Of a stretch of 54,539 nucleotides of DNA, positions 10,877 to 30,968 are shown one piece after another. The stretch is from assembly GCA_012838615.1 (NCBI GenBank), contig DUOV01000005.1:1-54539 (forward strand). The letters run 5' to 3'. The first letter of the stretch is position 1; every line of letters starts with the position of its first letter. Position numbers and translations under genes: made by a program. The notes under the pieces are model-generated. The model searched no databases, was not told where the DNA came from, and saw nothing but the letters and a program-made list of their open reading frames with translations. Source of the stretch: Clostridia bacterium. Its GTDB lineage: Bacteria; Bacillota; DUOV01; Zhaonellaceae.

Positions 10877-10878
10877 AT

Positions 10879-15321: not shown

Positions 15322-15364
15322 ATTATAGGATTTAACCTTAGGACAAGCTGTGATATTAATCACA
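15322..15364 (-). promoter_or_regulatory. hcp promoter with a CRP/FNR-family (HcpR-type) box
   Basis: Perfect palindrome TGTGA-TATTAA-TCACA at 15349..15364. A perfect minus-strand TATAAT sits at 15327..15322. The box centre falls about 41 nt upstream of the predicted TSS (class II geometry). Confidence 0.6.
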
Positions 15365-15569
15365 TTCTAGTAATTTTTATCATTTTTTTATGTATTTACC
15401 ATACTATCCATTTTAAAACCGAAACTGTTTTCCCCAAAAAATAAATCCTCCGCAGCTTGCTTATGGAACTTATATTCGGGACATAAAAGTAATTACAGGC
15501 TCCTTGCTTGTTTAAATAATCTTAATATGATAAAAAAATAGTAATGAGAATAGAAAGGGGAGAAAAAAA

Positions 15570-17417: not shown

Positions 17418-17442
17418 AAAAGCCCCCTACAGGGGCTTTTTT
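17416..17442. terminator. Bidirectional terminator (htpG / end of the minus-strand cluster)
   Basis: aaaaaagcccc-ctaca-ggggctttttt. Confidence 0.75.
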
Positions 17443-18079
17443 AATAACCTAAAGATTCTCCTATAACCACTACCGTCACATCAGTTGCAAATGGTTTTTT
17501 ATACATAATTGATAACACGTTACAAATTCGGCTTTTACCTTGACAATCCATACAGTACCCTTTAACGGTACAAGGATTTTGGGTTTGCAAGCGAAGGTTG
17601 TTCTGGGGTGAAGCAACAAGCTCTATACGTTCGATAGCAGCGTTAATATCTTTACATATTTTATTTACCCCAGCTACAATTATTACCTTTTCAGGTCCAA
17701 AGGTCATAGCACCAACCCGGTTTCCTACCCCGTCCATATTGACTAAAACCCCATCTAAAGTTAAGGCGTTAGTACTAGTTAAAAATACTTGGCAAGCTAA
17801 CTGCTCATGTCTTATTCTCGATTTTTCCTCAGGTGTCAGTCCAGGTAAATTGTGATCAAGTATTTTAGCCCCCTTAGCCTTAGCCAATTCAATAATATTA
17901 AGCTCTTTTAAAGTAACAGAACCTCCACAACCAACCTTGGCACCTTGAGGTATTAAATTAAGAATATATTCTACTGCCTCTATACGCTTAGAAAAATAAA
18001 AAGCATCAAAGTTGTTTTGCTTTAAACTTTTAACAACTTCCCTGCCTATTATATCTACATGTGCAATACTACCGGACAA
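17441..18079 (-). CDS. LUD-domain (LutC/YkgG-like, DUF162) protein
   Basis: ~210 aa stand-alone LUD-type protein (GCGGSVTL...ALTLDGVLVNMDGVGNRVGAMTFGP). It has a C-terminal Cys cluster (CTVKGYCMDCQGKSRIC). TTG start. Last gene of the cluster. Confidence 0.7.
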   Translation of the reverse strand: MSGSIAHVDIIGREVVKSLKQNNFDAFYFSKRIEAVEYILNLIPQGAKVGCGGSVTLKELNIIELAKAKGAKILDHNLPGLTPEEKSRIRHEQLACQVFLTSTNALTLDGVLVNMDGVGNRVGAMTFGPEKVIIVAGVNKICKDINAAIERIELVASPQNNLRLQTQNPCTVKGYCMDCQGKSRICNVLSIMYKKPFATDVTVVVIGESLGY

Positions 18080-18129
18080 CTCTACCTCTCCTTTTTATGA
18101 ACCAACTATTTATTCTAGTACATTATACT

Positions 18130-19383
18130 TTAGATCAGTCTTTTTCCTACTGCTTTGGCTAGCTCAGCTCCATTAACCAATAAGTCACAAACAGTAGCAC
18201 AGATAATCTGCGCTGGAATAATGTAGGCCGCATATTCATCAATTACCCTAAAATCCTTAGAGTGTAAATCTCCGGCAAATCCCCCTAAACATAACTGGCT
18301 TATAGGAAGCTTTTGGGATAAATCACCTAAATCTGTACATTGATAACCATGCTCCTGGTGCTTGACTTTTTGATTAACTAAAACCCGTTCAGCATTTAGT
18401 GTATATACTTTATTAAGTAAAGGATCAGATTCATAGGGCTTATAGCCTGGGATCCGCTCAATTTCGAGCTTACAACCAATTGTATTAGCCCCTCCTTGGG
18501 CCGCCCTTATAATTTTTTCTCTCACATTTTTTATAGCCTTAATAGTTCGTCCTCTGATCTGAACTTCCAAAACAGCTTCCTCAGGAACTATATTAAGGAC
18601 TTTACCTGCTTCAGTTAAGATAAAACTTACCCTAATGTTATCCCCTTCGGGAAATGTATCACGTAAAAATTGGATACCATTTATACTTAAGATAGCAGCG
18701 TTAAGGGCATTAACACATCTACTGGGGTTAAGTCCGGCATGACCGCCCTGTCCTATAAACCTAAACCTGTTTATCTCATAACCGTTACAGCTAACGCACA
18801 AGATAGCTTCAGCCTGATGTTCATTGTCCCGGGATAAAGCATGAGTGGTAAGTGCCATATCTACATCATCAAAACAGCCAAGCCTAAGCATTTCCTGCTT
18901 GCCACTAGAAAACTCCACTTGTCTTGTCTCAAGAAGATGGTTTCTGAAATTAAACTCTAAGTGTTCTTCGGCAGGTACAGCAAAAAATATCATGTCCCCA
19001 TCAAGTTGACTACCCACTCCAGACTTAACTAAAGCTTCAGCTGCAGCCAAAACGGCTACTAGCTGCATATGATGGCCACAGGCGTGAGCTGCTCCCGTTT
19101 CTTTATCAGCTAACGGGTGTTCTGGACAGTAAATAGCATCTAGCTCACCTAAGACCCCCACCGAAGCATAGCTGTTTTTTCCCTGAAACCTACTTTTTAC
19201 ACCGGTTAGGGCATACTTTTCAGTTTTTAAACCTAGCTCTTTAAAAAAGTCCTCTACGAGCTGAGACGTTTTATGTTCGCGAAAACCTAGTTCTGGTGTC
19301 CGGAAAAGCTTATTTCCTAAATCAATAAACTTTTGACTATGCTGTTCCAAATAACCAATTGCCTTTTCTTTTAGTTTTTTCAT
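18130..19383 (-). CDS. M20D-family amidohydrolase (AbgB / hippurate hydrolase / N-acyl-amino-acid amidohydrolase-like)
   Basis: PELGFREHKT...AHACGHH metal-binding motif. ~415 aa, typical of peptidase M20D. Confidence 0.8.
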   Translation of the reverse strand: MKKLKEKAIGYLEQHSQKFIDLGNKLFRTPELGFREHKTSQLVEDFFKELGLKTEKYALTGVKSRFQGKNSYASVGVLGELDAIYCPEHPLADKETGAAHACGHHMQLVAVLAAAEALVKSGVGSQLDGDMIFFAVPAEEHLEFNFRNHLLETRQVEFSSGKQEMLRLGCFDDVDMALTTHALSRDNEHQAEAILCVSCNGYEINRFRFIGQGGHAGLNPSRCVNALNAAILSINGIQFLRDTFPEGDNIRVSFILTEAGKVLNIVPEEAVLEVQIRGRTIKAIKNVREKIIRAAQGGANTIGCKLEIERIPGYKPYESDPLLNKVYTLNAERVLVNQKVKHQEHGYQCTDLGDLSQKLPISQLCLGGFAGDLHSKDFRVIDEYAAYIIPAQIICATVCDLLVNGAELAKAVGKRLI

Positions 19384-19413
19384 CCCTTCTCCTTTTAATC
19401 AGCTTTTTAAAAA

Positions 19414-20766
19414 CTAAAACTCAGCTGCCATCACATTTCCTCTTGATTCCTGATATTTTTCATTCCCTAGTTCAATGGCTCGCTGTAAGATTTTTTCCTC
19501 GTCAACTGTACAGAATTTTTGATTTTCTAAAATAACCTTTCCATCAATAATTACCGTTTCCACGTCACTTGCTTTACCACAATAAACTAAGGATTGTATT
19601 ATGTCATGTAAAGGTTGGATATGGGCTAACCTGGGATTTAAAACAACAAGATCAGCAAGTTTGCCTTCCTCAAGAATACCAGCTTCTATTCCCAACATTT
19701 TTGCCCCAGCTTCGGTAGCCATCTTAAACATTTCAGCACCAGAAATAACAGCCGGATCTTCATAAGCAGCTTTCTGGAGCATTGCACCAAAACGCATTTC
19801 CTCAAACATATCTAAAAGATCATTGGAAGCAGCGCCGTCAGTAGCTAAAGTAACGGGAATACCTTTCTTTAAATAAGTCACGATAGGGGCAATTCCACTC
19901 CCTAGTTTAGCGTTGCTCTTAGGATTATAAATCACGGTTACTTCTTTCTTTTTAGCCAATTCAATTTCATCCTCAGTTAAATGTACACAATGGATAGCAC
20001 AAATTGGCCTGGATAAGAAATCAAGGCTATCCAGATAAGCTAAAGGCGTTTTATTGCACTCGGTAAGGGATTGCTCAACTTCCCATTTTGTTTCAGAAAC
20101 ATGAATGTAAATTTGCAGTCCCCCATACTCTTCAGCTACTTGTTTAAGCCAATCCAGATAATCTGGTGTACAAGCAAAAGGGGTAGAAGGAGCCAAGGCT
20201 ACCTTTAAAATACCATTATTATGCCATTTTTCTATATACCCTACCATTTCTTGCTTCTTCTTATCTTCTGTTTGCATTAAAACCTTAGGAATCCATCTGT
20301 TAACTGTTTGTAGCGCCCCTGTTGCCCGTACACCGATATCTGACCAGGCTTCAAAAATACTATCCAGAGTAATATCCATATCCACAAAAGAAGTAACGCC
20401 GGACCTGACCATTTCTAAAGCACCTAAACCTGCATAATAATAGCCTAGTTCTATACTATTGTGTTGACGATGCTCCTGATGAATAATACGGGAAAAGGGG
20501 AAAGTTACCTGCTCACACCACTCTTTAAGTCGCAAATCGTCTCTAATTCCTTTTAGCATATTTTGATACAGATGCGTATGAGCATTAACCAGCCCAGGGA
20601 TGACTATCTTACCTGTTCCGTCAATTATTTTTACTTCATCTTTCCATTGGTCTAATTTAAAATGACCAATTTTTTTAATCTTGTTTCCCTCAATTAGCAA
20701 ATCTATATTTGTAAGCACTTTATCCGCTTTTTGCACAAGGTAGCTAATATTCCTAAGTAAAATCAC
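19414..20766 (-). CDS. Amidohydrolase_1 superfamily deaminase/hydrolase (COG0402: SsnA / MtaD / guanine- or pterin-deaminase-like)
   Basis: Has PGLVNAHTHLYQ (HxH), HVSET, CAIHCVHL and ATDGAASN motifs in the canonical order. Confidence 0.8.
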   Translation of the reverse strand: MILLRNISYLVQKADKVLTNIDLLIEGNKIKKIGHFKLDQWKDEVKIIDGTGKIVIPGLVNAHTHLYQNMLKGIRDDLRLKEWCEQVTFPFSRIIHQEHRQHNSIELGYYYAGLGALEMVRSGVTSFVDMDITLDSIFEAWSDIGVRATGALQTVNRWIPKVLMQTEDKKKQEMVGYIEKWHNNGILKVALAPSTPFACTPDYLDWLKQVAEEYGGLQIYIHVSETKWEVEQSLTECNKTPLAYLDSLDFLSRPICAIHCVHLTEDEIELAKKKEVTVIYNPKSNAKLGSGIAPIVTYLKKGIPVTLATDGAASNDLLDMFEEMRFGAMLQKAAYEDPAVISGAEMFKMATEAGAKMLGIEAGILEEGKLADLVVLNPRLAHIQPLHDIIQSLVYCGKASDVETVIIDGKVILENQKFCTVDEEKILQRAIELGNEKYQESRGNVMAAEF

Positions 20767-20782
20767 TAAAACTCCCCCTTAT

Positions 20783-21196
20783 CTATTCCATAGCCAAAGC
20801 TCTAACTTGGAGGGCTTTATCCTTGGGAACTATGAGTCTGACAATTGGGGTATGGTCATTTTTAGGACTAACTATAACCTTGTCAACATGAGCTTGGCAA
20901 ATTACCTCGCCCTCATTATTTCTAGCCCTAACCTGTTGTCCTTTTACAGGGAGAGGTAAATATTCATAAGGTATATCTACACTTGCCTCATGGGGACTGT
21001 AATCTAAATCGACTACAAAACAGGCTTGGCCTGGACAAGCAACTATACACCGACCGCAACCAGTACATAAATCCAGGTTTACTTCAGGTATTGCAGTCAA
21101 ATCCTCCCCTACTCTGATGGCGCCTGTTTGACAGGCGTATTCACATGGATTGCAAGGGATCCTTTCAGGACAATCAACTAATACTTTTCTTGCCAT
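20783..21196 (-). CDS. 4Fe-4S dicluster ferredoxin-domain protein (gamma-like subunit), copy 2
   Basis: CNPCEYACQTGAI and CTGCGRCIVACPGQAC. It is a paralogue of 10352..10876. The ATG at 21196 lies 8 nt after an AGGAG, so I prefer it to the track GTG at 21205. Confidence 0.75.
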   Translation of the reverse strand: MARKVLVDCPERIPCNPCEYACQTGAIRVGEDLTAIPEVNLDLCTGCGRCIVACPGQACFVVDLDYSPHEASVDIPYEYLPLPVKGQQVRARNNEGEVICQAHVDKVIVSPKNDHTPIVRLIVPKDKALQVRALAME

Positions 21197-22052
21197 AGCC
21201 CCCACTCCTGTTTATGATCTTATCTAAAAGGTTTAAGGCATTTATCCCACTTATTAAAGACTGTTCAGCCAGATTTAAGCCGCTGCGAGTCATTTCTTCC
21301 AAATTACGTTGGGGTGATAACAGAGGATAATCACTACCTAATAAAATCTTGTCTAATACTCCTACTTCCTGTGCTACCTTATATACTTTAGGCTCATATA
21401 GAAACGGTGAGGCAGCAGTATCATAATAGACATTTTTGTATTTTTCTTTAAGCTCAGGCATCAATTCATAGAAAAAGAGCCCCCCACCCCAATGGGCAAA
21501 AATTACTGTTAAGTCCGGATTCTTATCTACAAAAGCATTAAGTTTTACCGGAGTTGTTGTTGTCTTACCAGGATAATAGTGTCCCACAGGTTCATTGGAA
21601 TGGACAATTAATGGCATATTCCTCTCCTGCAAATAACCGGCAAAAATGATACTGTGTTTTGGGTTTTCTATTTCAAAATTCTGACCATCAGGAAATATCT
21701 CACCAACGCCGATAAGTCCTAAATCTAAACACCTGTCCAATTCCTGCTCAACCTTGGAATCATTAGGATTAACAATCCCAAACCCTATCAGAAAATCAGG
21801 ATGATTTTTTACAGCCTCAGCTACATAATCATTAACCATCTTGCATAAACCAGGATCTTTAAAACCAAAACCAAAAACTACAGCTTTATCTACACCTGTT
21901 CTTTGTAATTCGGCCACAACCTCTTCAGCAGTTGCAAACTTATTTTTAGGACTATCCGATAAAAGCTTAAAATAAGGTTCTCTGGCGCCTATTTTCTGAT
22001 AATCTTTAATGATTTCCGGCGGAGTTACGTGGACATGAAAATCAATTTTCAT
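21174..22052 (-). CDS. Amidohydrolase_2 (PF04909-type TIM-barrel metal hydrolase/decarboxylase/lactonase family), copy A
   Basis: MKIDFHVHV (HxH), VHSNEP, FAHWGG and GSDYP in the order typical of ACMSD/LigI-type enzymes. It is inserted between the delta-like and gamma-like dehydrogenase genes. Confidence 0.8.
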   Translation of the reverse strand: MKIDFHVHVTPPEIIKDYQKIGAREPYFKLLSDSPKNKFATAEEVVAELQRTGVDKAVVFGFGFKDPGLCKMVNDYVAEAVKNHPDFLIGFGIVNPNDSKVEQELDRCLDLGLIGVGEIFPDGQNFEIENPKHSIIFAGYLQERNMPLIVHSNEPVGHYYPGKTTTTPVKLNAFVDKNPDLTVIFAHWGGGLFFYELMPELKEKYKNVYYDTAASPFLYEPKVYKVAQEVGVLDKILLGSDYPLLSPQRNLEEMTRSGLNLAEQSLISGINALNLLDKIINRSGGYGKKSIS

Positions 22053-22341
22053 TTTCCTTACCCCCAGCTAAATCTAAATCTGCTATCACCTTGAGGGTTA
22101 CTGGTCCGACCGGATACCGAATACTACCTGGCAGGAAATGAGCCACAGGCATCCCTAAATAAGCACTTAACAATTTTGCCACGAGCCTCTTGCAGCTTTT
22201 ACCCTGACAATAGCCCATGCCAGCTCGGGTTCTCTTCTTAATTGCTTCTAAGGAAGTATCTCCTGCTTGTAAAGCTTGGATTATTTCCTCCTTTGTTACT
22301 TCTTCGCACCGACAAATTATTTCTCGTTTGCTCATAGACAT
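22042..22341 (-). CDS. Small BFD-like [2Fe-2S]-binding protein (delta-like), copy 2
   Basis: CRCEEVTKEEI...RTRAGMGYCQGKSC. Paralogue of 10081..10368. Confidence 0.8.
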   Translation of the reverse strand: MSMSKREIICRCEEVTKEEIIQALQAGDTSLEAIKKRTRAGMGYCQGKSCKRLVAKLLSAYLGMPVAHFLPGSIRYPVGPVTLKVIADLDLAGGKENEN

Positions 22342-23435
22342 GACTCCTTAGGAATTTTCATGCTAATTATTCCTTGTTTAGCTAGTTGTCTTTTCTCGCC
22401 AAAAGGCCCCTGGCGTAGCTTGGTCAGCCTGTCTTTTATCTTCTGCATTTCATCATCCACTTCTTTAAAGTTCCTTAAGCCAAGTTTTTGGACTGCTGAC
22501 AAACCTGCTAGACGACCTTCATCTAACGCTGTGCTGGCTTCTTCCACTCCGGCCAAATCACCGGCAACCAAGATTCTGCTTTGGGAGGTACACATATTTT
22601 CGTCATGCCAGGGCATCATACCCCCTAAAACCGGGGAATATATTAGGTGACACCCACATAAGGCGGCCAACTCCACTCTAGGATTAAGACCAACAGCTAA
22701 ACAAAGGGTATCTGCGTCTAAAGTAAACTCTGTTCCGGCAATAGGTTTCATATTACTATCAAGCTTACAGAGAATAACTTGTTCCAAGATTTTTTCTCCT
22801 ATCGCTTCCTTTACAGTATGACTCAGCAGTATTCTTACTCCTGCCCTTTTTACCTTAGCGGCATGAACCGCATAACCGGATATTTGAGGTAAAGCCTCCA
22901 CGATTGCTAGTACTTCTGCCCCAGCCTGTTTTAGCTGGTAAGAAACAATTAAACCAACATTACCTGAGCCTACTACTACAAACTTTTTACCCGGTAAAAC
23001 CCGGTGTAAATTAACCATAGTTTGGGCAGCCCCTGCAGTAATAACTCCGGGCAAGGTACTACCGGGAAAACTTAAAACATTTTCCGAAGCTCCTGTGGCC
23101 AAAATAATAGTTTTCCCTTCAAATTTCAGACCTTTCTCTCCACAATAAGCAGTTACAATACCCCCCGGAAAAACACCCCAAACCCTTGTATCCAACTTTA
23201 AAACCACGTTTAAGCTAGCTGCTTCCTTAAGTAAGTTTTCACCGATATCAAAACCTCTGGTGCCGGCATAATGTTCTTTTGAACCAAAAAACTTATGAAT
23301 CTGTTTAAACAACTGACCGCCAGGTCTGGAATTCTCATCAAGAAGTAAAGTTCTAGCCCCTAACCTAGCTGCTTCTACAGCAGCCCCCAGGCCAGCCGGT
23401 CCTCCACCAATCACGATTACATCAAATTTATTCAT
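22332..23435 (-). CDS. FAD/NAD(P)-binding oxidoreductase (alpha-like), copy 2
   Basis: FDVIVIGGGPAGLGAA and FVVVGSGNVGLIVSYQL. The ATG at 23435 lies 7 nt after an AAGGAG and overlaps the upstream stop (ATGAATAA). The track start at 23459 is probably too long. Confidence 0.8.
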   Translation of the reverse strand: MNKFDVIVIGGGPAGLGAAVEAARLGARTLLLDENSRPGGQLFKQIHKFFGSKEHYAGTRGFDIGENLLKEAASLNVVLKLDTRVWGVFPGGIVTAYCGEKGLKFEGKTIILATGASENVLSFPGSTLPGVITAGAAQTMVNLHRVLPGKKFVVVGSGNVGLIVSYQLKQAGAEVLAIVEALPQISGYAVHAAKVKRAGVRILLSHTVKEAIGEKILEQVILCKLDSNMKPIAGTEFTLDADTLCLAVGLNPRVELAALCGCHLIYSPVLGGMMPWHDENMCTSQSRILVAGDLAGVEEASTALDEGRLAGLSAVQKLGLRNFKEVDDEMQKIKDRLTKLRQGPFGEKRQLAKQGIISMKIPKESCL

Positions 23436-23748
23436 ATGTTGACTCCTTTCCAAACCCATGCTGTGTTTTTATTTCCATTCCTTCCCTGATTGGAGTCACA
23501 CAAGTTCGAACATTAGGAACGCCATCAACCTCCATTACACAATCGGTACATTGGCCTATCCCGCAAAATAAACCGCGAGGTTCATTAAACTTATGAGTGA
23601 ATCTAAAAATTTTTATACCATTAGCCAGTAAAGCGGCGGCAATGGGTTCCCCCTCAATACCTTGTATTTCCCTGCCGTCAACTTTTACAGTAACATATTT
23701 TTTCTTTTCCATGGTTCCAAGAATAGGATGTTCTTCAATATGTGCCAT
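23428..23748 (-). CDS. Small [2Fe-2S]-binding protein (HcnA-like), copy 2
   Basis: GLFCGIGQCTDCVMEVDGVPNVRTCVTPI. Clear paralogue of 11981..12304. Confidence 0.8.
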   Translation of the reverse strand: MAHIEEHPILGTMEKKKYVTVKVDGREIQGIEGEPIAAALLANGIKIFRFTHKFNEPRGLFCGIGQCTDCVMEVDGVPNVRTCVTPIREGMEIKTQHGFGKESTYE

Positions 23749-23773
23749 AGTCTTCGCCTACCTTTTGGTGTAG

Positions 23774-23794
23774 AAGCGGGGCTTAGCCCCGCTT
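23774..23794. other. GC-rich intra-cluster hairpin
   Basis: aagcggggc-tta-gccccgctt between the S-component stop (23800) and the next start (23748). The T-run is on the plus-strand side only, so it is not a canonical minus-strand terminator. Confidence 0.4.
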
Positions 23795-23799
23795 TTTAC

Positions 23800-24558
23800 T
23801 TAATCTTCGTCATCATCTTCCAGTCCAGCCTCGGGTCCAACAAAAATACCGATCTTAGGCAAACCTATTAGAAGAGGTACTCCGATAATTCCGGCGCCGA
23901 TAGAAAATATCGTTCTCTCAGTAGGAGAAATAGGAATTAGCATGTTCCACAAGGATGCGGGAAGTTGATATACGACTAAACTAAAATAATTGGCAAGGGC
24001 AGCAGCTCCAACCATTCCTGCAAAAGAAGCTAACCAAACTGCTATAAATTTTTTGAAGAAATTAGCTTCTTTGATTAATTTAGTTCCTATAATACCACCA
24101 ATAATTGCCATAATAGCTCCCAGTCCATAAAATACAATTGCAAAAAATGGAGCCTGACGACCAATTTCATGGGTAAACCAGAGTACGGTACCAAGAGCAA
24201 TAATACCTACAGCTATTGGCCACTTACCCCTAGAGACAGTACCTGATACAAAAGCATTAATAGTACCTATTAAAAATGTTCCTATCCCCGCCCAGGCTGT
24301 GTGGGGAGCAATAATTTGTCCGATAAAGTTACCGATGGCAGCGCAAAGAGCACCCCCAATAGGTCCAAAAAATACTCCTGCCAAGGGGACAAGGGCTGAA
24401 CTAACTGAAAAAGTACCACCTGTTCCTAAAATAGGAATAGAAGGTAGCATATGAGCCACAGCAATTACAGCAGCCCAAACGGCAAGAACAGCGGGATGAG
24501 TATTTCCCATGCCCATTTTTTCAGTAAAGCTTTTCTCTCTTAACTTGACTTCACTCAC
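23800..24558 (-). CDS. Polytopic membrane protein, probable ECF-transporter substrate-capture (S) component of unknown specificity
   Basis: GTG start after AAAGGAGG. About 6-7 Gly/Ala-rich TM helices and an acidic tail (EDDDED). It lies next to ecfA-ecfA'-ecfT in the same operon (group-I ECF layout). Confidence 0.6.
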   Translation of the reverse strand: MSEVKLREKSFTEKMGMGNTHPAVLAVWAAVIAVAHMLPSIPILGTGGTFSVSSALVPLAGVFFGPIGGALCAAIGNFIGQIIAPHTAWAGIGTFLIGTINAFVSGTVSRGKWPIAVGIIALGTVLWFTHEIGRQAPFFAIVFYGLGAIMAIIGGIIGTKLIKEANFFKKFIAVWLASFAGMVGAAALANYFSLVVYQLPASLWNMLIPISPTERTIFSIGAGIIGVPLLIGLPKIGIFVGPEAGLEDDDED

Positions 24559-24660
24559 GACTTCAACCTCCTTTTTTTAGTTATAGAGACTAATTTAGGT
24601 TAGGTTAAGGCTACAGGTTTCCACCTCCTTGTTTATTTCTTTTTGCCTCCCCAAAGACGC

Positions 24661-25461
24661 CTAGATTCCCAGGGCCTCAAGCATATTCAAGCCCAAGACC
24701 CGTTTTTTAGCACCTGAATCTATGTCTAAGTAATCAAACCTCTTAAGCATAGCTTCAGGGGAATCCCAAGGAAAATCTGAACCAAAAACAACCTTGTCAG
24801 GTAATTCCCGTACAGCTACTTGTAGGGCAGTTGCGTTTACAACCTCGGAAGTATCGAGGTAAATATTAGGACAGTTAAGGGCAACTTCAATTGCTTCAAT
24901 CCAATAATCTCCTCCCAGATGTCCAACGATAATTTTCGCCCTGTTAAAACGCTTAGCTAATTCAAATACTGCCTTTAAATCAGTAACATCTACAGGGTAA
25001 TCACAATGGATAAATACTGGAAAACCATTTTGTTCATGGGAAAATTGAAACAAAGGCTCTAATAATTTAGTGTTGCCATGAATACCTACTACTTCTCCGA
25101 TACCTTTTAGTCCTAAGTCTAGAATTTTCTGCGCTTCCATGAGTATCTCGCTTTGAAATAAATCAATCTTGCCAAACCCAATCAACCTTTGGCAATGGTT
25201 AGCTACCACTTGAGCAAGTTTTGTATTGATATCCTGCAAAGCCAGCTCCTGACCCATTCCATTTTGGGCCTCAGTAATTCTGTTAAAAGTCGTTTTGGCA
25301 TCCAATAAGGAATAAATGTGCTCACCCTTGGCTAACCCAGAAGAACAGACTACAGCCTTGTCGATTCCAGCTCGTTTAAGTCTTTTAAGTATTATCTCTT
25401 CCGGCTCGGTTAAATGAGTATGAGCATCAACCAGCATTAACCGCGTTACCGCCTTTCTCAC
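24661..25461 (-). CDS. Amidohydrolase_2 (PF04909-type) family protein, copy B
   Basis: Has VDAHTHL, IHCDYP, VGHLGG and FGSDFPW motifs. Overlaps the 3' end of the upstream ecfA gene by 35 nt. Confidence 0.75.
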   Translation of the reverse strand: MRKAVTRLMLVDAHTHLTEPEEIILKRLKRAGIDKAVVCSSGLAKGEHIYSLLDAKTTFNRITEAQNGMGQELALQDINTKLAQVVANHCQRLIGFGKIDLFQSEILMEAQKILDLGLKGIGEVVGIHGNTKLLEPLFQFSHEQNGFPVFIHCDYPVDVTDLKAVFELAKRFNRAKIIVGHLGGDYWIEAIEVALNCPNIYLDTSEVVNATALQVAVRELPDKVVFGSDFPWDSPEAMLKRFDYLDIDSGAKKRVLGLNMLEALGI

Positions 25462-26284
25462 TTTTTAGAGCAATTAATTTTTCGCCAAATTCCCCAACGT
25501 TGAGGATAGTTTGGTTTATGGGTATTTTCGGTTGTAAGCTGCGTGCAACTTCTGTAATTTGGGGTGGTTTAATATGGGTCATTCTAAGCTTGTCAGGGTG
25601 GGAGAACACTTCTCTTGTACTGCCGTCCAACAAAACCTCACTATTCATCATTACAATGGTTCTTTCGGTATACTCGGCAACTAAAGCCATATGGTGAGTT
25701 ACAACCACCAAAGTATGTCCCCTTTTATTAAATTCTTTAGCAATATCCATGATCTGATAACAGCCACGGTAATCTTGACCGCTGGTTGGCTCATCCAGAA
25801 TGATAATCTGAGGGCCCATGGCAAGGACAGAAGCTATAACAACCTTTGCCCTATCCCCTTTACTCAAAGCAGGAGGGAAGGCATCCCTATAATCATTTAA
25901 GCCTACTGCATCTAAAGCATAGTCGACCCTTTCCTTGATCTGAGCTTCGTTTAAACCCACATTTTTAGGCCCAAAAGCTACTTCTTCTTCTACAGTATTT
26001 GCGAAAAGTTGACGATCCGGGTTTTGGAGAACGAAACCCACTTCTAAGGCCAAATCTGATACAGGCACATTTATAGTATCTCTTCCGTTAACCAGAATTC
26101 TTCCTTCTGTTGGTCGCAAAAGCCCCGTAATATTTTTTAGCAGAGTAGATTTTCCTGCCCCGTTTTGTCCGATAATACCAACAAATTCGCCTTTTTTTAT
26201 ATCAATATTAATATTTTTTAAAGCTAGACTACCTTTTTCGTATTTGTAAGATAAATTCTCGATTTTAATAACTGATTCCCTCAC
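25427..26284 (-). CDS. ECF transporter ATPase (EcfA2-like)
   Basis: GQNGAGKST, LSKGDRAKV signature and IIILDEPTSGQD. The C-terminal extension is typical of EcfA. Confidence 0.85.
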   Translation of the reverse strand: MRESVIKIENLSYKYEKGSLALKNINIDIKKGEFVGIIGQNGAGKSTLLKNITGLLRPTEGRILVNGRDTINVPVSDLALEVGFVLQNPDRQLFANTVEEEVAFGPKNVGLNEAQIKERVDYALDAVGLNDYRDAFPPALSKGDRAKVVIASVLAMGPQIIILDEPTSGQDYRGCYQIMDIAKEFNKRGHTLVVVTHHMALVAEYTERTIVMMNSEVLLDGSTREVFSHPDKLRMTHIKPPQITEVARSLQPKIPINQTILNVGEFGEKLIALKSEKGGNAVNAG

Positions 26285-27162
26285 GCTTCCCCCTCCTCAT
26301 ACCACTTGGTAAGCAACTGTATAGCCTCCTCTGGTAAAATTGGAAAGCCCTTTAAAAGCTGTCCCTTTTCTTCTAAAAGAGTGGCCAGTTCAGATACTTG
26401 AGGTGGACGAATCCAGTTGTCTTTCATTAACTTTGTATTCCTAAATATTAGTTGAGGAATGTCAAAGGCTTGTATCTGGCCATCTTTTAAAACCAGTACC
26501 CTATCAGCAAATTTAGCAATTTCTTCACTCTTATGAGTAGCAATAACAACAGTCATTCCGTACTCATCCTTTAGTTCTCTGATAACACTAAATACTTCTT
26601 CCGTACCTATAGGATCTAGCTGAGAAGTTGGCTCATCTAACACCAAAATTTTAGGTTTCATGGCTATTGCTGCAGCAATGGCCAGTCGTTGTTTTTGCCC
26701 ACCGGATAAGGCTGTAGGATGGCGTTCTGCATATTGTTCTAAACGTACTACTTTCAAAGCCCAACGGATTCTTTCTAAAATTTCCGGAACTGGCATACTT
26801 AAATTTTCTGGTCCAAAGGCCACTTCCTCTTTTACTTTAGTAGTAAACAGCTGAGTTTCCGGATCCTCCAAGACCATCCCTACAATCTGCGACAATTTAG
26901 ATATTGGTGTCTGTAGGGTATTTAGACCTGCGACCGTGATAACACCTTTCAATTTTCCTTGCTGAGAATGAGGAATAACCCCGTTTATGCATTGACAAAA
27001 GGTTGTCTTACCTGCACCATTTTCCCCCATTACAGCAATAAATTCCCCTTCTTTAATTTCTAGATTTAACTCCTTTAAAACCCACTTTTTTGTTCTGGGA
27101 TAGCGATAAGATACATTATCAACCTTAATTATAGTTTCCGCCACATCTGAACCCCCTACCAT
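26281..27162 (-). CDS. ECF transporter ATPase (EcfA1-like)
   Basis: GENGAGKTT, LSGGQKQRLAIA and ILVLDEPTSQLD. The ATG at 27162 overlaps the ecfT stop (ATGGTAG). I prefer it to the track start at 27192. Confidence 0.85.
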   Translation of the reverse strand: MVGGSDVAETIIKVDNVSYRYPRTKKWVLKELNLEIKEGEFIAVMGENGAGKTTFCQCINGVIPHSQQGKLKGVITVAGLNTLQTPISKLSQIVGMVLEDPETQLFTTKVKEEVAFGPENLSMPVPEILERIRWALKVVRLEQYAERHPTALSGGQKQRLAIAAAIAMKPKILVLDEPTSQLDPIGTEEVFSVIRELKDEYGMTVVIATHKSEEIAKFADRVLVLKDGQIQAFDIPQLIFRNTKLMKDNWIRPPQVSELATLLEEKGQLLKGFPILPEEAIQLLTKWYEEGEA

Positions 27163-27917
27163 GCAAAATTCACCCAAAGAGCAATTCCGCATAATATTAG
27201 TATTAAAACTAAGGCTACTATATCGACGTTCTGAAGTGAAATATCTTCGATAAAAGTTTTTGTTTTACCAGCACCAAAAGCTCTGGAATCCATAGCTACA
27301 CCCATTAATTGGGCCCTGCGCATAGCTCCAATTACCAATGGAACTACTAGCGTAGGATATGCTTTAAATTTCTCTATCAATTTACCCTTTTCAAAAACTG
27401 TAAGCCCGCGCATTTTTTGCGCATCCATTATTACCTTGGTTTCATCCTGGAATGTTGGGATAATATTAAGGGCAGTAGTTGCCATGTAGGCAATTTTATA
27501 GCTCATGCCCATTTTAACCAAACCTAAAGCAAGCTTGTTAATAGGTGTAGTCATAATAACCAAAGGCATAAAACATATTAAGGTGAGAAGTCTAAAGCTT
27601 AATAGTAAACCGAAAATCGCTCCCTCTAAACTGAAAAAACCTTTAAAAAGATAATGTTCACCAGGTAAAAATAAAGATTGCACTACAGTTAAAAAAACAA
27701 AAAGACTTAACAAGAATTTTAAAAATCCTTTAACCTTATTTAAAGGTAAACCAGCAATGTGCCAACACATAAGACAACTTAAAAAGAAAGCTGCTATCAC
27801 AAAAAAGTTCGAAAGTAAGAAGATTGTGACTGTTACAACTATTAGGGTAATTAATTTTACTCTTGGATCAAGTCTGTGTACCAATGAATCTCCCGGATAA
27901 TAATCAATTACACTCAA
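27156..27917 (-). CDS. ecfT: ECF transporter transmembrane (T) component
   Basis: CbiQ/EcfT-type membrane protein with the conserved Arg-containing coupling helices (VPLVIGAMRRAQLMGVAMDSRAFG). Confidence 0.85.
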   Translation of the reverse strand: MSVIDYYPGDSLVHRLDPRVKLITLIVVTVTIFLLSNFFVIAAFFLSCLMCWHIAGLPLNKVKGFLKFLLSLFVFLTVVQSLFLPGEHYLFKGFFSLEGAIFGLLLSFRLLTLICFMPLVIMTTPINKLALGLVKMGMSYKIAYMATTALNIIPTFQDETKVIMDAQKMRGLTVFEKGKLIEKFKAYPTLVVPLVIGAMRRAQLMGVAMDSRAFGAGKTKTFIEDISLQNVDIVALVLILILCGIALWVNFAW

Positions 27918-27929
27918 TTAGATCCCTCC

Positions 27930-29060
27930 TTAAACTCTATCTGGGGAAAACATTTCTATAGGCCAATTGCTTCTTCCTCGTATATACTCTACTACTTTTA
28001 CTCCAATGGCGGGTGCCGTTGTAAATGCCCCTTTAAAACCAGCCGCGGTAAACAAATTAGGTACTTTAGAACTAAATCCGCAAATCGGAAGCCCATCATT
28101 TGTATAAGGTGTTACGGCAGTCCATACTCTGACTATCTCCAAATTCATAAGTTTCGGAAAATATCTGCTGAAATTTTTAGCCGTCTTGTGAAAAGTTTTT
28201 AAGGGAACATCCTTACTGTCAAGTTCTTTTTCTTCAGTACCCTGACCTATGATTACACTACCACGAGCGGATTGAACAGCGCTTAAACCTATCCTTAAAG
28301 TAGTGGTCTTTAACATCGCTCCTGTTAAAAAACCTCCGCCTACAACAGGACCGAAAATTACTCTTGGTACAGGCTGAGAAACCATAGCTGTACCATGATG
28401 ATATTTAAGGGGAATAGATGCGCCAGCCAGTTGAGCAATTAAACCGGACCATGAACCTGCAGCGTTAATAACTAAATTAGTTGTTATTTCTCCTTTTGAA
28501 GTTAAAACCTTATGGATCATCGAACCTTTTTTTTCAAAACCTATTACTTTTGTAAAGGGACGTATCCTAAGTCCGTATTGCTTACCTAGTTCAATAAACA
28601 TTAAGGTTACGGCAAAGGGATCCAACCTTCCTTCCCTCGGACAATAAACCGCGCCGCAAACTTCATCGGGATACAAATAAGGTTCGACACTATTTATATC
28701 TTTACCTTTTAATATTTGTGGACTTATCTTAAAGTCCTTAAACCTTCCAACTATTTTCTCAGCCATTTCTTCTTGTTCAGGCGTTGCTAGTACTACAAGA
28801 CCACCTGTTTCTTGAAAATCAATAGCAAAATCTTGAGCGAATAACTTATACATTTCCAACGACTCTAAAGCTAAGGAGATATGCCAATCTTCCCAACGAT
28901 CAAATAAAGATATTTGACCTAAATTTCCTCCTGAAGCTCCAGAAGCAAATTCATTTTTGTCTAAAATAACTGTATCATAGCCTGCTTTGGCAAGGTTATA
29001 GGCAATAGCAGAACCGAGTACCCCTCCGCCAACTACTACGACATCGGCTCTTTCAGACAT
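27930..29060 (-). CDS. FAD-dependent oxidoreductase, DAO family (beta-like subunit), copy 2
   Basis: DVVVVGGGVLGSAIAYNLAKAGYDTVILDK. ~376 aa. Paralogue of 8943..10088, but separated from its alpha/gamma/delta-like partners by the ECF genes. Confidence 0.8.
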   Translation of the reverse strand: MSERADVVVVGGGVLGSAIAYNLAKAGYDTVILDKNEFASGASGGNLGQISLFDRWEDWHISLALESLEMYKLFAQDFAIDFQETGGLVVLATPEQEEMAEKIVGRFKDFKISPQILKGKDINSVEPYLYPDEVCGAVYCPREGRLDPFAVTLMFIELGKQYGLRIRPFTKVIGFEKKGSMIHKVLTSKGEITTNLVINAAGSWSGLIAQLAGASIPLKYHHGTAMVSQPVPRVIFGPVVGGGFLTGAMLKTTTLRIGLSAVQSARGSVIIGQGTEEKELDSKDVPLKTFHKTAKNFSRYFPKLMNLEIVRVWTAVTPYTNDGLPICGFSSKVPNLFTAAGFKGAFTTAPAIGVKVVEYIRGRSNWPIEMFSPDRV

Positions 29061-29113
29061 TGCCTCACTCCCTTCTGGTTCAGCTCATCTAATTGTCATT
29101 TAGAAAGGAAACT

Positions 29114-29147
29114 AACTTGGCTTTCCCAAACCAGGAAAGGCCAAGTT
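29114..29147 (-). other. Strong stem-loop between the Mch-like gene and the downstream genes (possible partial terminator or processing site)
   Basis: 13-bp stem with one bulge: aacttggctttcc / ggaaaggccaagtt, with a 7-nt loop. The minus-strand 3' flank is AGTTTCCTTTCT. Confidence 0.4.
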
Positions 29148-29163
29148 AATTGTAAACTGCTAA

Positions 29164-30132
29164 TTATGCTTTTCTATAAAAAGATTTTTTCAACTTATCC
29201 GGTCTGATTACCCCAGCTTCAAAGGTACTACCAGTTGCATAATTAGTTATTTCATACCGGGCTACTGTATGTATATCTTTATCAACAATATAAAAATCAC
29301 GTTTACCTTCTTCAAAAATATCTATAAAATCCTCACCATAACGCCTTGAAGCATTAAAAGGCAGCTTTTCAATAACTTCCTCTACTTCTGCATCTGTACA
29401 ATCTACCACATAGCGTACCGTAACCCCGTAAAGAAGAGCTGTATTAACTCTGTCCATAGCAAATAACTCGTCTTTTACCGGAGGAGCAATGGGGCAAGTT
29501 CCCATGCCGCTGATTATCTTACTTATATCAAAACCTTTACGTTGAATTCTCCAGATAGACGCTTCAACTGTTCGAGAGCAGACCTGGATTGAGCCTGCCA
29601 GACTACCTGTTTTAGCTGCCAAAATATAGACGTTCTCTACTGGAATCTTACACTCATCTGCTATTTGCTGAGCTAGTGCTTCATCCGGTATTTCCTGAGT
29701 TTGGGCTGCAAAAACAGTCTCATGGTGGATATCTTGATAGTGCCAACATTGGGAGAAGATATCATTTTTAGCTATAGCTCTAGCTGGGCCGGAACCAATT
29801 GGATTAATATAACCTGGAATATCTTTGCTAGGCATTTTCCAGCCTGAAAACTGGGAAGACAAACAAGCAGTAGCCGGATGGTCGATATACACATCAATTG
29901 AAGGCAAAGTTATATCATCTGCAGAGAAAGTGCCAAAGTCCACATGACCAAGACCTCCAATGGTAGCTTCCACAAAAAGTTTGCCAGCCAGATAGCCTCC
30001 GGGCATTTCCACCCCCATATCCACTACTGTAGCTCCATTTTTCAGCTTGATGACTTTGCAGTTCAATTGTTCAGCATAAGGGATAATCTTTTCTTTAACA
30101 ATCCTGACTGCTTCTTGGTTAACACTAAACAT
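29164..30132 (-). CDS. Methenyltetrahydromethanopterin cyclohydrolase (Mch)-family protein
   Basis: 322 aa, collinear with archaeal Mch as I recall it. Shared blocks are SVN.EA...L.NG.TV.D.GVE..GG..AG.LF, DHPA...Q..GW, GSGPARA, ADEC....ENVY.L.A.T.S..GS.Q...R.VE, G..PIAP, DFY..D and G.I. Confidence 0.8.
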   Translation of the reverse strand: MFSVNQEAVRIVKEKIIPYAEQLNCKVIKLKNGATVVDMGVEMPGGYLAGKLFVEATIGGLGHVDFGTFSADDITLPSIDVYIDHPATACLSSQFSGWKMPSKDIPGYINPIGSGPARAIAKNDIFSQCWHYQDIHHETVFAAQTQEIPDEALAQQIADECKIPVENVYILAAKTGSLAGSIQVCSRTVEASIWRIQRKGFDISKIISGMGTCPIAPPVKDELFAMDRVNTALLYGVTVRYVVDCTDAEVEEVIEKLPFNASRRYGEDFIDIFEEGKRDFYIVDKDIHTVARYEITNYATGSTFEAGVIRPDKLKKSFYRKA

Positions 30133-30185
30133 TTACCTTCCTCCTTTGATATAAAAAATGTAGTGCATAAATAAGTTTGTTAATT

Positions 30186-30917
30186 TTAATCAAGGGGTCC
30201 ATCAGTCTTACGCAACATGGTCAGCTTCATGATTTCCGGTTTAAAGTAACACTTAGCACTACAAATAGCTTCATCCTTAAAATTGAAATATACCTCTTCC
30301 CAGGCAAATAACGGGCACAGTAGCGGTACATCCAGGTAATTTGCTAAAACTTCATCACTTATTGCAGCCTGAAAGTAAATCAGGGTTTGAGCTACTTCTT
30401 GATTACAATACTTCTTTAAAAACTTAAAAATGCTACGGCCTACTTGTTTAAGATCGGGCTGGATCAGGAATAGTCTTTGAGGAATGAATATTTCACAATA
30501 AATTGCAGGATTGTTATCGGCGTAATAAAGCCCCTTTCTAACCAATACTAGTTCATCATCTTCCAGCTTAAGAAACTTTTTAATTTTATCATCAGCTTTA
30601 ATAAATTCGTTATTGAGTAATTTAAAGCTGGCTTGATGATTGCCATCCTCTATTAGATTGATAAAATCTTGAATTTGGTCAATGCGCATAACAGTATTTA
30701 AAGCACTTGCATGAATAAAATTGCCAAATCCATGTTTTTTACTAATAATACCTTCTTTATCTAAAGTCCTCAAAACTTCACGTATGGTACTGCGACTGAC
30801 ATTGAGTTGCTCGGCCAGACTGTCTTCCGAAGGCAACTGGTTATTTTTTTTAAGATTTAAATTATTAATCAATTTCAGCAAATTATGCTTTGTTTCTATG
30901 TAAAGTGAATTTCTCAC
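30186..30917 (-). CDS. GntR-family (HutC-like, UTRA effector domain) transcriptional regulator
   Basis: wHTH LPSEDSLAEQLNVSRSTIREVLRTLDKEGIISKKHGFGNFI plus a ~150 aa UTRA-like C-terminus. The track TTG start (30968) coincides with a TTGACA -35 box. I prefer the GTG at 30917 after the G-rich RBS, giving (M)RNSLYIETKH. Confidence 0.8.
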   Translation of the reverse strand: MRNSLYIETKHNLLKLINNLNLKKNNQLPSEDSLAEQLNVSRSTIREVLRTLDKEGIISKKHGFGNFIHASALNTVMRIDQIQDFINLIEDGNHQASFKLLNNEFIKADDKIKKFLKLEDDELVLVRKGLYYADNNPAIYCEIFIPQRLFLIQPDLKQVGRSIFKFLKKYCNQEVAQTLIYFQAAISDEVLANYLDVPLLCPLFAWEEVYFNFKDEAICSAKCYFKPEIMKLTMLRKTDGPLD

Positions 30918-30938
30918 TCCCTCCCCCCCTCTACTAAT

Positions 30939-30968
30939 AGAATACTGTCTGAGGTCTGACAATGTCAA
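30939..30968 (-). promoter_or_regulatory. Putative sigma-A promoter of the GntR-headed cluster with an embedded imperfect palindrome
   Basis: The minus strand reads TTGACA, 18 nt, then TATTCT. The spacer contains TGTCagacctcaGACA (30961..30946), a candidate GntR autoregulatory operator. Confidence 0.45.

Follow-up and report, generated by a model that had tools for sequence, protein, structure and literature searches.

Homologues of the cyclohydrolase Mch are treated as markers of methanogenesis and of methylotrophy that depends on tetrahydromethanopterin (H4MPT), and NCBI- and JGI-style pipelines annotate them accordingly. What such a protein could be doing in a long operon of hydrolases and redox proteins is the question raised by contig DUOV01000005.1 from a Clostridia bacterium of the family Zhaonellaceae (assembly GCA_012838615.1), whose whole stretch of 54,539 nucleotides is here called the window. 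On its minus strand, between positions 17441 and 30968, 16 consecutive co-directional open reading frames (ORFs) encode, among others, a Mch-family cyclohydrolase, four amidohydrolases, the subunits of a flavin- and iron-sulfur-containing (flavo-FeS) dehydrogenase and an energy-coupling factor (ECF) importer. A preliminary description of the locus announced 15 genes in its title although its own list, like the ORF list of the window, holds 16; the consecutive minus-strand run that it reported is real.

We propose that this is a substrate-inducible catabolic operon that imports and dismantles a fused-pyrimidine nitrogen heterocycle, in which the Mch-like enzyme would open a cyclic formamidinium, and we give this reading a probability of about 0.45. 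More generally, the comparisons below support the existence of an uncharacterised anaerobic N-heterocycle operon that is widely conserved and centred on a recruited Mch. If true, this would add a new enzyme to those that open nitrogen heterocycles without oxygen, and purines, methylated nucleosides or pterins would have a sink not described before in digesters, sediments and guts. The marker annotations of Mch are probably misleading in metagenome-based metabolic reconstructions, because catabolic operons of Clostridia, Chloroflexota, Actinomycetota and Spirochaetota house a large and deep bacterial branch of the family.

The Mch-family cyclohydrolase

The signature enzyme of the operon matches PF02289 over residues 3–318 of its 322 amino acids (353 bits), exceeds the cut-off of the TIGR03120 equivalog (296.8 against 228.8 bits), aligns to PDB 1QLM at 1.2e-70 and is about 45% identical to Mch of Methanopyrus kandleri. 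Residues Arg183 and Glu186 of Archaeoglobus fulgidus Mch, which from the work on 4GVQ–4GVS we take to be catalytic, align to R187 and E190 of the window protein and are invariant in 13 relatives of its subfamily. The GSGPAR and VxDxGV motifs are also kept, with QKAGW changed to QFSGW and TND to VNT. Since the catalytic Arg/Glu pair is kept, the enzyme would be expected to hydrolyse a cyclic formamidinium with water to an N-formyl amine. In a distance tree, two archaeal Mch sequences form one branch among several deep bacterial subfamilies, and the window protein together with that of one other locus (L020) is sister to an Anaerolineae clade.

Co-conservation across genomes

The window Mch was aligned with 12 relatives and one genome per species of GTDB r232 was then scanned, which gave 79 distinct loci (L numbers), almost all from metagenome-assembled genomes (MAGs), plus the cultured Moorella naiadis. 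A tblastn comparison of the 16 window proteins with these loci revealed a co-travelling set, at 41–67% identity per protein, that consists of Mch, the DAO-family flavoprotein, the alpha-type subunit, both 2Fe-2S proteins, the Fer4 protein, the COG0402 amidohydrolase (AH1), a PF04909 amidohydrolase and the ECF components T, A, A' and S. The set is found in shuffled gene order in L015, L018–L025, L030, L037 and L038, i.e., in Clostridia, Oscillospiraceae, Peptococcaceae, a spirochaete (L037) and M. naiadis (L038), and the co-conservation that the preliminary description had called for is thus present, at 45–67% identity per protein, in about a dozen Bacillota, Spirochaetota and Moorella genomes. 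That a core set travels together in shuffled order through at least four phyla argues for functional coupling. The M20D amidohydrolase and the LUD-domain protein do not belong to this core, because the former has no close orthologue in the 79 loci and the latter, absent from all of them, was seen only in the window host. Non-orthologous M20 genes recur in L083/L020, L037, L091 and the group-B loci, so that of the gene set originally presented as one unit the core stands, M20D is a recurrent accessory type only and LUD is specific to the host.

Neighbouring ORFs were also clustered de novo for the 35 loci of the window's Mch subfamily in which a Mch ORF was called. A COG0402 enzyme lies within 6 kb of Mch in 24 of the 35 loci and is the very next gene in 16; within the same distance, a small cytoplasmic CE4 (NodB-type) deacylase occurs in 20/35, a DAO-family protein in 18/35 and the ATPase of an ABC or ECF importer in 21/35 loci. 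A Pfam scan of 60 unclustered same-strand neighbours gave no further conserved family with more than two members. Among the annotated neighbours in the window and the 79 loci no Fae, Mtd, Ftr/Fhc or H4MPT-biosynthesis genes were identified, a statement that refers to these neighbourhoods only and involved no search by name.

In Anaerolineae and Acidimicrobiia, Mch is 65–80% identical to the window protein and is accompanied by analogous but diverged partners. The Anaerolineae loci (L001–L017, L049) have a Mch of 74–80% identity (76–80% in the tblastn comparison) and AH1, DAO and alpha-type proteins of only ~30%, which, together with the sister position of the window and L020 proteins in the tree, suggests that Mch alone was recently transferred between phyla. 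Their clusters contain an ABC importer of the Bmp/PnrA type, found in 21 of 41 loci of the subfamily, and a CE4 deacylase that precedes Mch, while the opposite strand carries a Sox-like DAO/alpha/Fer2_4 set with MeTr-like and Mer-like proteins. The former match best the methyl-tetrahydrofolate-binding MeTr domain (138–206 bits, below the cut-off of 259) and the latter, luciferase-like proteins, match best the methylene-H4MPT reductase Mer (182 bits, cut-off 276), followed by an LLM family at 81. MeTr-like proteins occur in 13 and Mer-like proteins in 15 loci of the window's subfamily, and in Acidimicrobiia the Mer-like gene lies directly 3' of Mch. PfkB, UxaC, MBL and PHO4 genes 5' of the Anaerolineae clusters were considered as a sign of ribose processing, which was rejected as NCBIfam identifies a true glucuronate isomerase and a KDG-kinase-like protein; the PfkB and UxaC genes are probably part of an unrelated hexuronate operon.

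A more distant tier of Mch proteins (41–53% identity) in Oscillospiraceae, Christensenellaceae and Clostridiaceae keeps the order COG0402–Mch–DAO, and these paralogous clusters often hold two or three Mch copies per locus. They add a SsnA-like hydrolase, a PreA/UacX-like Fe-S reductase, an M20 enzyme, 2-oxoacid dehydrogenase E1/E2/E3 components, a D-hydantoinase (at the TIGR02033 cut-off) and a xanthine-dehydrogenase-type Mo enzyme with FAD and 2Fe-2S subunits. The cultured M. naiadis AZ13.I has both an ECF-type (L038) and a Bmp-type (L077) Mch cluster. The latter spans 9980–18838 of its locus and encodes Mch, a truncated Mch-like ORF (Mch'), FMN_red, FolB, a Bmp-type ABC importer and a COG0402 enzyme; this FolB is a true dihydroneopterin aldolase above the NCBIfam equivalog cut-off, and at 8593–8694 a purine riboswitch precedes a xanthine/uracil permease that adjoins the Mch operon. 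Purine and pterin signals thus stand side by side at this locus. As a separate observation, a 5-kb contig in a record titled Methanothrix sp. bin.308 (L034) carries a bacterial-type Mch of 66% identity with CE4 and Mer-like neighbours; its placement under Methanothrix is probably a binning error, which would inflate counts of 'archaeal' Mch.

Operon structure and gene families

Gene starts and spacings were taken from independent gene calls on identical metagenome contigs (features are listed in Table 1). Neighbouring operon genes are separated by −23 to +103 nucleotides (nt), and both overlaps quoted earlier, ATGGTAG of ecfT/ecfA at 27162–27156 and ATGAATAA at 23435–23428, are real in the sequence; such tight packing points to translational coupling. 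The GTG at 27144, which a GGGGG Shine-Dalgarno sequence precedes, is as good a start of ecfA as the ATG at 27162. The terminators that had been placed at both ends differ in quality: the bidirectional hairpin downstream is canonical, while the one upstream is weak and bulged. A strong hairpin in the spacer between mch and the DAO gene may be an attenuator or a processing or stability element, or may split transcription of gntR-mch from the remaining 14 genes.

The most likely start of gntR is at 30917 and not the TTG at 30968 of the mechanically called ORF, because the latter overlaps the promoter. The motif TGTC-N8-GACA occurs once in the window, between the −35 and −10 hexamers; since at least one match somewhere in the window was also obtained in 23 of 100 shuffles, it is the position of the palindrome and not its count that points to an operator, and we suggest that it is that of the operon's own GntR/HutC-type regulator. 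PF00392 and PF07702 both exceed their cut-offs in this protein, which places it by its GntR helix-turn-helix (HTH) and UTRA domains in the HutC subfamily, and homologues are present in 11 related loci.

Table 1 Coordinates of the operon features and of other genes in the window (5' to 3' along the operon, then surrounding genes)
Feature	Start	End	Strand	Basis or remark
Weak bulged hairpin then T run, 3' of the upstream fur-znu operon; upstream unit boundary	31010	31044	-	sequence; not listed by scanner
Palindrome TGTCTGAGGTCTGACA (TGTC-N8-GACA), candidate operator of GntR/HutC-type repressor	30946	30961	.	inside promoter spacer
Candidate sigma-70-type promoter TTGACA-18 nt-TATTCT, 5' of gntR	30939	30968	-	consensus match only, 10/12
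GntR/HutC-subfamily regulator, winged HTH and UTRA effector domain, 243 amino acids (aa)	30186	30917	-	PF00392 52 bits; PF07702 55 bits
Mch-family cyclohydrolase, 322 aa, signature enzyme	29164	30132	-	PF02289 1.7e-105
Strong near-perfect hairpin, ~14 bp, then T-rich tract, in 103-nt mch-DAO spacer	29112	29134	-	sequence
DAO-family flavoprotein, predicted beta-type catalytic subunit of heteromeric amine dehydrogenase	27930	29060	-	PF01266 8.8e-61, 206.8 bits
EcfT (CbiQ family), transmembrane coupling component	27156	27917	-	PF02361 5.2e-34
EcfA ATPase; start ambiguous, ATG 27162 (overlaps ecfT stop), GTG 27144 or ATG 27192	26281	27162	-	TIGR04520 270 bits
EcfA' ATPase	25427	26284	-	TIGR04521 263.7 bits
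PF04909 amidohydrolase AH2a, between ecfA' and S component	24661	25437	-	PF04909 7.6e-20
ECF S (substrate-capture) component, unnamed family	23800	24558	-	PF07155 37.5 bits (cut-off 26.7)
2Fe-2S subunit, Fer2_4; resembles SoxA N-terminus and HcnA	23428	23748	-	PF13510 8.6e-32
FAD/NAD(P)-binding alpha-type subunit, Pyr_redox_2	22332	23435	-	PF07992 6.9e-36
BFD-like 2Fe-2S and SO_alpha_A3 protein, 97 aa	22042	22335	-	PF04324 8.1e-15; PF17806 6.9e-10
Second PF04909 amidohydrolase AH2b	21174	22052	-	PF04909 5.3e-25; 50–63% identical in six related loci
2x[4Fe-4S] ferredoxin-like subunit	20783	21196	-	Fer4 families; 41–57% identical in related loci
COG0402 amidohydrolase AH1, deaminase type, 450 aa	19414	20766	-	PF01979 3.9e-67
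M20D amidohydrolase, accessory; predicted N-acyl/N-formyl/N-carbamoyl hydrolase	18130	19383	-	TIGR01891 172.9 bits (cut-off 153.75)
LUD-domain protein, last gene of unit	17441	18079	-	PF02589 1e-47
Intrinsic bidirectional terminator AAAAAGCCCCTGTAGGGGGCTTTTTT, common to operon and convergent htpG	17416	17441	.	canonical; read by eye, not listed by consensus scanner
Second flavo-FeS set: DAO	8943	10100
Second flavo-FeS set: 2x[4Fe-4S]	10352	10876
Second flavo-FeS set: Pyr_redox_2	10879	12000
Second flavo-FeS set: DUF1667 protein	13504	13857
Selenocysteine formate dehydrogenase alpha subunit	6616	8652	-	Molybdop_Fe4S4, Molybdopterin, Molydop_binding
Fe-S/NAD-binding protein, 3' of formate dehydrogenase alpha subunit	4699	6615
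Pyrimidine-nucleoside phosphorylase	37571	38881	+
Cytidine deaminase	38878	39279	-
PucR-family regulator	47109	48299
153-aa ORF, probably 2Fe-2S subunit	48285	48746
Xanthine-dehydrogenase-type FAD subunit	48739	49605
Xanthine-dehydrogenase-type Mo subunit	49598	51874

Each key ORF stayed, under Pfam and NCBIfam, in the family to which it had been assigned by reading alone. The best NCBIfam models of AH1 are of the MtaD/DadD type, all below their cut-offs, and its nearest characterised relatives are deaminases of methylthioadenosine, S-adenosylhomocysteine and 5'-deoxyadenosine. Aligned to Tm0936, PA3170 and Cv1032, AH1 keeps the HxH, HxxE, His and Asp motifs (NAHTH, IHVSET, HCVH, TDGAASN) and the equivalents of Tm0936 Trp75 and Glu84, residues to which we assign the roles that we assume for this family; it also matches 2PAJ at 1.9e-27. 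SsnA membership was considered and rejected for AH1, which reaches 192.4 bits on TIGR03314 (cut-off 455.5) and 196.6 bits on PRK07203 (cut-off 444), and for eight AH1 homologues from other loci, all likewise below the cut-off; one group-B copy is SsnA-like. The structure-database search returned only uncharacterised or generic solved relatives for the two PF04909 proteins and the CE4 deacylase, the closest to AH2a being the uncharacterised protein 3CJP. AH2a is a candidate deformylase and probably acts either first or last among the hydrolases that process the imported compound.

The redox proteins resemble heteromeric amine dehydrogenases. The best solved relative of the DAO subunit is 1Y56_B, the beta subunit of Pyrococcus horikoshii L-proline dehydrogenase (1.7e-45), with sarcosine oxidase beta at 3.5e-17, and the alpha-type subunit matches TIGR01372 (soxA) at positions 165–490 as well as PDB 2GAG_A, 1VRQ_A and 1Y56_A, with sarcosine oxidase alpha and PH1363 as its nearest relatives. 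The C-terminal half of SoxA, which binds folate, is missing from it, and the Pfam scan found no folate-binding (GCV_T-like) domain in any of the 16 operon proteins. The window also contains a second flavo-FeS set (Table 1) that is paralogous to that of the operon and resembles the DAO/oxidoreductase/DUF1667 triads common in Clostridia.

The S component of the importer is 53–64% identical in the ECF-type Mch clusters, and none of its 327 homologues bears the name of a specific substrate. The importer module has a life of its own outside Mch clusters: homologues of ~50–56% identity lie in ECF-only operons without Mch (L088–L091), where in a Treponema operon the S component is directly followed by a PF04909 gene and in another operon by an M20 gene, and still others are preceded by an FGGY kinase and phosphoribosyl pyrophosphate (PRPP) synthetase or adjoin genes of polyamine synthesis.

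Proposed function and substrate

In the order of steps and the redox direction that we infer from these families, a HutC-type GntR repressor would bind the palindrome that lies in its promoter, the compound would enter through the dedicated ECF transporter (EcfT, EcfA, EcfA' and S component) and the COG0402 enzyme would hydrolytically remove an exocyclic amino or amidine nitrogen. The flavo-FeS dehydrogenase, a putative complex of the DAO beta-type and NAD(P)/FAD alpha-type subunits, two 2Fe-2S proteins and the 2x[4Fe-4S] protein, would then perform a two-electron step at the ring or at an N-alkyl C–N bond, giving a cyclic formamidinium, five-membered and non-aromatic, that is part of the substrate or of a tetrahydropterin to which the methyl or methylene carbon of the substrate has passed. 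The Mch-like enzyme would hydrate the formamidinium carbon and turn the ring into an N-formyl amine, as Mch does with methenyl-H4MPT. Finally, the PF04909 and M20D amidohydrolases would split off the formyl group, which leaves as formate, and hydrolyse whatever amide or ureido bonds are left, a role that in other lineages could fall to the CE4 deacylase adjoining Mch, and the released formate could be oxidised by a selenocysteine formate dehydrogenase encoded 9 kb away.

Most likely, a base or nucleoside of the purine type, possibly N-methylated, serves as substrate, with a one-carbon- (C1-) carrying pterin a close second; we would lay roughly two chances in five on a purine type, seven in twenty on a pterin type and one in four on something else. 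Importers of the Bmp type, deaminase relatives of the adenosine type, paralogous clusters of uricolytic type and the presence of several Mch paralogues favour a purine type, and the similarity of the enzyme to true Mch and the neighbours of MeTr-like, Mer-like and FolB type favour a pterin type. That a locus may carry two or three Mch paralogues can be taken as an argument that Mch acts on heterocycles themselves. In the anaerobic uric-acid pathway, a hydantoinase opens the 8-oxo five-membered ring (bioRxiv 2025.05.19.654654, 2025.04.24.650524), so that for a ring with C8–H one would logically expect an amidine hydrolase in its place. On purely chemical reasoning, N-methylated cationic purine nucleosides such as 7-methylguanosine may be attractive candidates, because methenyl-H4MPT has its closest natural analogue in their imidazolium ring and the 2-amino-4-oxopyrimidine fused to it; the sarcosine-oxidase-like enzyme could remove the N-methyl group of such a methylated nucleoside.

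A bolder and rather doubtful extension of the proposal is that bacteria of anoxic habitats have recruited Mch to open formamidine rings of purine-type heterocycles in general, which would define a fourth route of purine degradation. A C–H amidine carbon would there be converted to formate by Mch and a deformylase, whereas the known routes attack the pyrimidine ring first. The carbon concerned could be the C8 of a purine in reduced form or of one alkylated at N7, such as 7-methylguanosine, or the C2 of a ring of 1-methyladenine or hypoxanthine type, and the several Mch–COG0402 paralogue pairs per locus would correspond to different (methylated) purines.

Four substrate ideas had been put forward in the preliminary description, two of which, a pterin, folate or methanopterin-type cofactor and a purine or imidazole compound, gain support from these data. 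Creatinine appears incidental, with a creatininase-family gene at the edge of one locus (L081) and hydantoinase and M20 genes in paralogous clusters, and ectoine received no support. For the latter, the annotated neighbours include no DoeA/DoeB-type genes and the M20D protein scores 76.6 bits on DoeB2 against a cut-off of 550. Thiamine, considered for thiazolium ring opening, was likewise rejected, there being no TenA, ThiD or ThiM among the annotated neighbours.

Several observations weigh against the proposed catabolism. At Rfam gathering thresholds, no riboswitch that would name the ligand lies in or before any Mch operon of the window and 18 loci; apart from that, the scan returned the purine riboswitch adjoining the L077 operon and a molybdenum cofactor (Moco) riboswitch in L030, which are suggestive context and do not assign a ligand. 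The window operon itself holds no Mo hydroxylase, PreA-like reductase or CE4 deacylase, and the roles given to the PF04909 and M20D enzymes are guesses. An amino-acid product late in the route could equally be the substrate of the DAO-type complex. The usual cargo of ECF transporters is vitamins present in traces, a better fit to salvage than to catabolism in bulk. With about 45% identity to M. kandleri Mch and all motifs kept, the null expectation is a genuine methenyl-tetrahydropterin cyclohydrolase, and the gap in identity between Mch and its partners in Anaerolineae fits an invariant cofactor-bound substrate, such as methenyl-tetrahydrofolate (methenyl-THF), equally well or better.

Alternative explanations

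The chief alternative is one that we consider unlikely but still a serious competitor. The sarcosine-oxidase-like dehydrogenase would oxidise the N-methyl group of an amine or heterocycle and hand it to THF as methylene-THF, oxidation would continue to methenyl-THF, and Mch, as a methenyl-THF cyclohydrolase, would feed formyl-THF and then formate, with the hydrolases processing the demethylated skeleton, e.g., in a creatinine-, sarcosine- or methyl-purine-type route. The score of Mch above the equivalog cut-off with its catalytic residues kept, its far better conservation than that of its partners between Clostridia and Anaerolineae, the MeTr-like (13 loci) and Mer-like (15 loci) proteins of the same subfamily, and the SO_alpha_A3 domain and soxA/soxB similarity of the complex are all consistent with such a route. 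Haloarchaeal Mch and Mer homologues have moreover been argued to use folate (THF) and not methanopterin (PMC8305020), which is a precedent for Mch outside H4MPT metabolism. However, two or three Mch paralogues per locus and the strict AH1–Mch adjacency are hard to square with a generic C1 enzyme, the window operon holds no MeTr-like, Mer-like or recognisable methylene-THF dehydrogenase gene, the alpha subunit is without the folate-binding half of SoxA, and proline dehydrogenase is a much nearer relative of the DAO subunit than sarcosine oxidase beta. Since Neomoorellales, the order in which we place the host, normally have FolD and Fhs, a private cyclohydrolase would probably also be redundant.

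Rather less credible, though in keeping with the pterin signals, is that the imported compound is a C1-loaded tetrahydropterin, a folate or the methanopterin or sarcinapterin of co-habiting methanogens, taken up for salvage or catabolism. Mch would strip the methenyl group, the COG0402 enzyme would be a pterin deaminase, the flavo-FeS dehydrogenase would cleave the C–N10 bond and the hydrolases would finish the breakdown. Cofactors are typical cargo of ECF transporters, deaminases of pterin and isoxanthopterin belong to COG0402, and the AH1 relative 2PAJ and the MeTr-like, Mer-like and FolB neighbours point in the same direction. The hosts are Zhaonellaceae, Anaerolineae, Oscillospiraceae, Cloacimonadota and spirochaete MAGs, many of whose record titles suggest anoxic, digester-type samples, and one locus (L034) is binned with a Methanothrix MAG. 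Against this, AH1 is closer to the deaminases of adenosine analogues than to the pterin or guanine group, no conserved enzyme of the p-aminobenzoyl-glutamate or side-chain type accompanies the cluster (M20D is not core), cofactor pools are small for a catabolic investment of 16 genes, and the paralogous clusters look uricolytic and not pterin-directed.

It is improbable that several unrelated modules (ECF with PF04909, the dehydrogenase, Mch–AH1, M20D–LUD) are merely transcribed together. The occurrence of the S-component family in ECF-only operons with PF04909, M20 or PRPP synthetase genes and no Mch, the poor conservation of LUD and the window M20D, and the strong hairpin between mch and the rest of the operon would fit such an assemblage, but the core set travels together in shuffled order through at least four phyla, and the gene spacings and overlaps indicate translational coupling. 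A divergent copy of a known pathway (uric acid/2,8-dioxopurine, clostridial xanthinase, or proline, opine or sarcosine dehydrogenation) is very improbable as judged from the uric-acid and dehydrogenase routes, which the comparison covered. The uricolytic cluster does share the COG0402, M20 and Fe-S flavoenzyme families, and the window has a PucR regulator and a xanthine-dehydrogenase-type enzyme at a distance of 17 kb. However, AH1 stays far below the SsnA cut-off (192 bits against 455.5), XdhD, YgfK/UacX, HyuA, YgeW/YqeA and YgeX are not in the operon, neither uric-acid pathway paper mentions a cyclohydrolase, and a plain proline or sarcosine dehydrogenase operon would need no Mch and four hydrolases.

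Genomic surroundings

In the wider window, the ORFs 8248–8652 and 6616–8199 on the minus strand form one frame through a TGA at 8250–8248 (motif CARL-U-HSPTVAGL) and together encode the alpha subunit of the selenocysteine formate dehydrogenase, whose gene is followed by that of an Fe-S/NAD-binding protein. Nucleoside salvage is represented ~7 kb upstream of the operon by a pyrimidine-nucleoside phosphorylase and a cytidine deaminase. At a distance of 17 kb, a PucR-family regulator gene lies beside, and convergent with, an operon for a Mo hydroxylase of the xanthine dehydrogenase type with Mo, FAD and probable 2Fe-2S subunits, which hints that the host handles purine-like heterocycles.

Comparison with known pathways

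Compared with the characterised pathways that could be tested or were found described, with the clostridial xanthinase genes outside the comparison, the operon appears to match none. Its designation as undescribed, which rests on the literature and the libraries searched, is thereby upheld for the pathways compared, the SsnA/2,8-dioxopurine route being excluded, and in the literature searched we found no description of a Mch homologue in such a cluster.

The reductive uric-acid/2,8-dioxopurine cluster encodes XdhD, YgfK or UacX, SsnA, HyuA, YgeW/UacY, YgeY and YgeX, and its discoverers used the SsnA family (TIGR03314/IPR017700) as marker; an Fe-S flavoenzyme reductase is coupled to the COG0402-type SsnA, followed by the hydantoinase, M20 and other hydrolases (bioRxiv 2025.05.19.654654, 2025.04.24.650524). 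The operon shares this logic of an anaerobic Fe-S flavoenzyme and a COG0402 hydrolase followed by ring and ureido hydrolases including M20, and the paralogous Mch clusters further share SsnA-like, UacX-like, hydantoinase, xanthine dehydrogenase and M20 genes; Chloroflexota variants with luciferase-family reductases are known from both. However, the window operon is without a SsnA orthologue, Mo enzyme, hydantoinase, carbamoyltransferase and YgeX, and Pfam and NCBIfam detect no XdhD, YgfK/UacX, HyuA, YgeW/YqeA or YgeX among its 16 genes. The absence of SsnA, Mo enzyme, hydantoinase, YgeW and YgeX argues that it is not the uric-acid pathway. It has instead Mch, a proline-dehydrogenase-type complex, two PF04909 enzymes and an ECF importer, and the Mch step would attack a formamidine carbon; a cyclohydrolase is mentioned in neither of the two 2025 papers on that pathway (bioRxiv 2025.05.19.654654, 2025.04.24.650524).

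Histidine-utilisation pathway II (HutI, HutF, HutG, HutC) is similar in opening a cyclic amidine, removing nitrogen with a COG0402 enzyme and yielding formate through a deformylase, and the operon also has a regulator of the GntR/UTRA (HutC) type. In contrast to that pathway, it has no histidase, urocanase or HutI, AH1 reaches only 125–135 bits on the HutF models (cut-offs 362–413), and ring opening would use the unrelated fold of Mch.

As in the group-I ECF transporters (BioMNY, QrtTUVW, YkoEDC), ecfT, ecfA, ecfA' and the S component are encoded together with genes that would use the cargo, but the S component belongs to an unnamed family and the importer is coupled to a large catabolic set and not to the biosynthesis or salvage of a cofactor. 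The redox complex shares with P. horikoshii PDH1 (1Y56), sarcosine oxidase, HcnABC and opine oxidase the DAO beta subunit, the NAD/FAD part of the alpha subunit, the small Fer2_4, BFD and ferredoxin-like subunits and the SO_alpha_A3 domain. Unlike in sarcosine oxidase, the alpha subunit is of 367–375 aa and without the folate-binding half of SoxA, and the A3/BFD part is a separate 97-aa protein; the genomic partners Mch and COG0402 are unlike those of any characterised member of this family.

With the Mch of methanogens, Archaeoglobus and methylotrophic bacteria, finally, the window protein has in common the full-length PF02289 domain, the TIGR03120 match, the catalytic residues and the expected chemistry. 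It differs from these systems in its host, a Clostridia-class bacterium of the Zhaonellaceae, and in its company of deaminase-type hydrolases, an amine dehydrogenase and an importer, and some of the bacterial subfamilies depart from archaeal Mch further by having two or three copies per locus.

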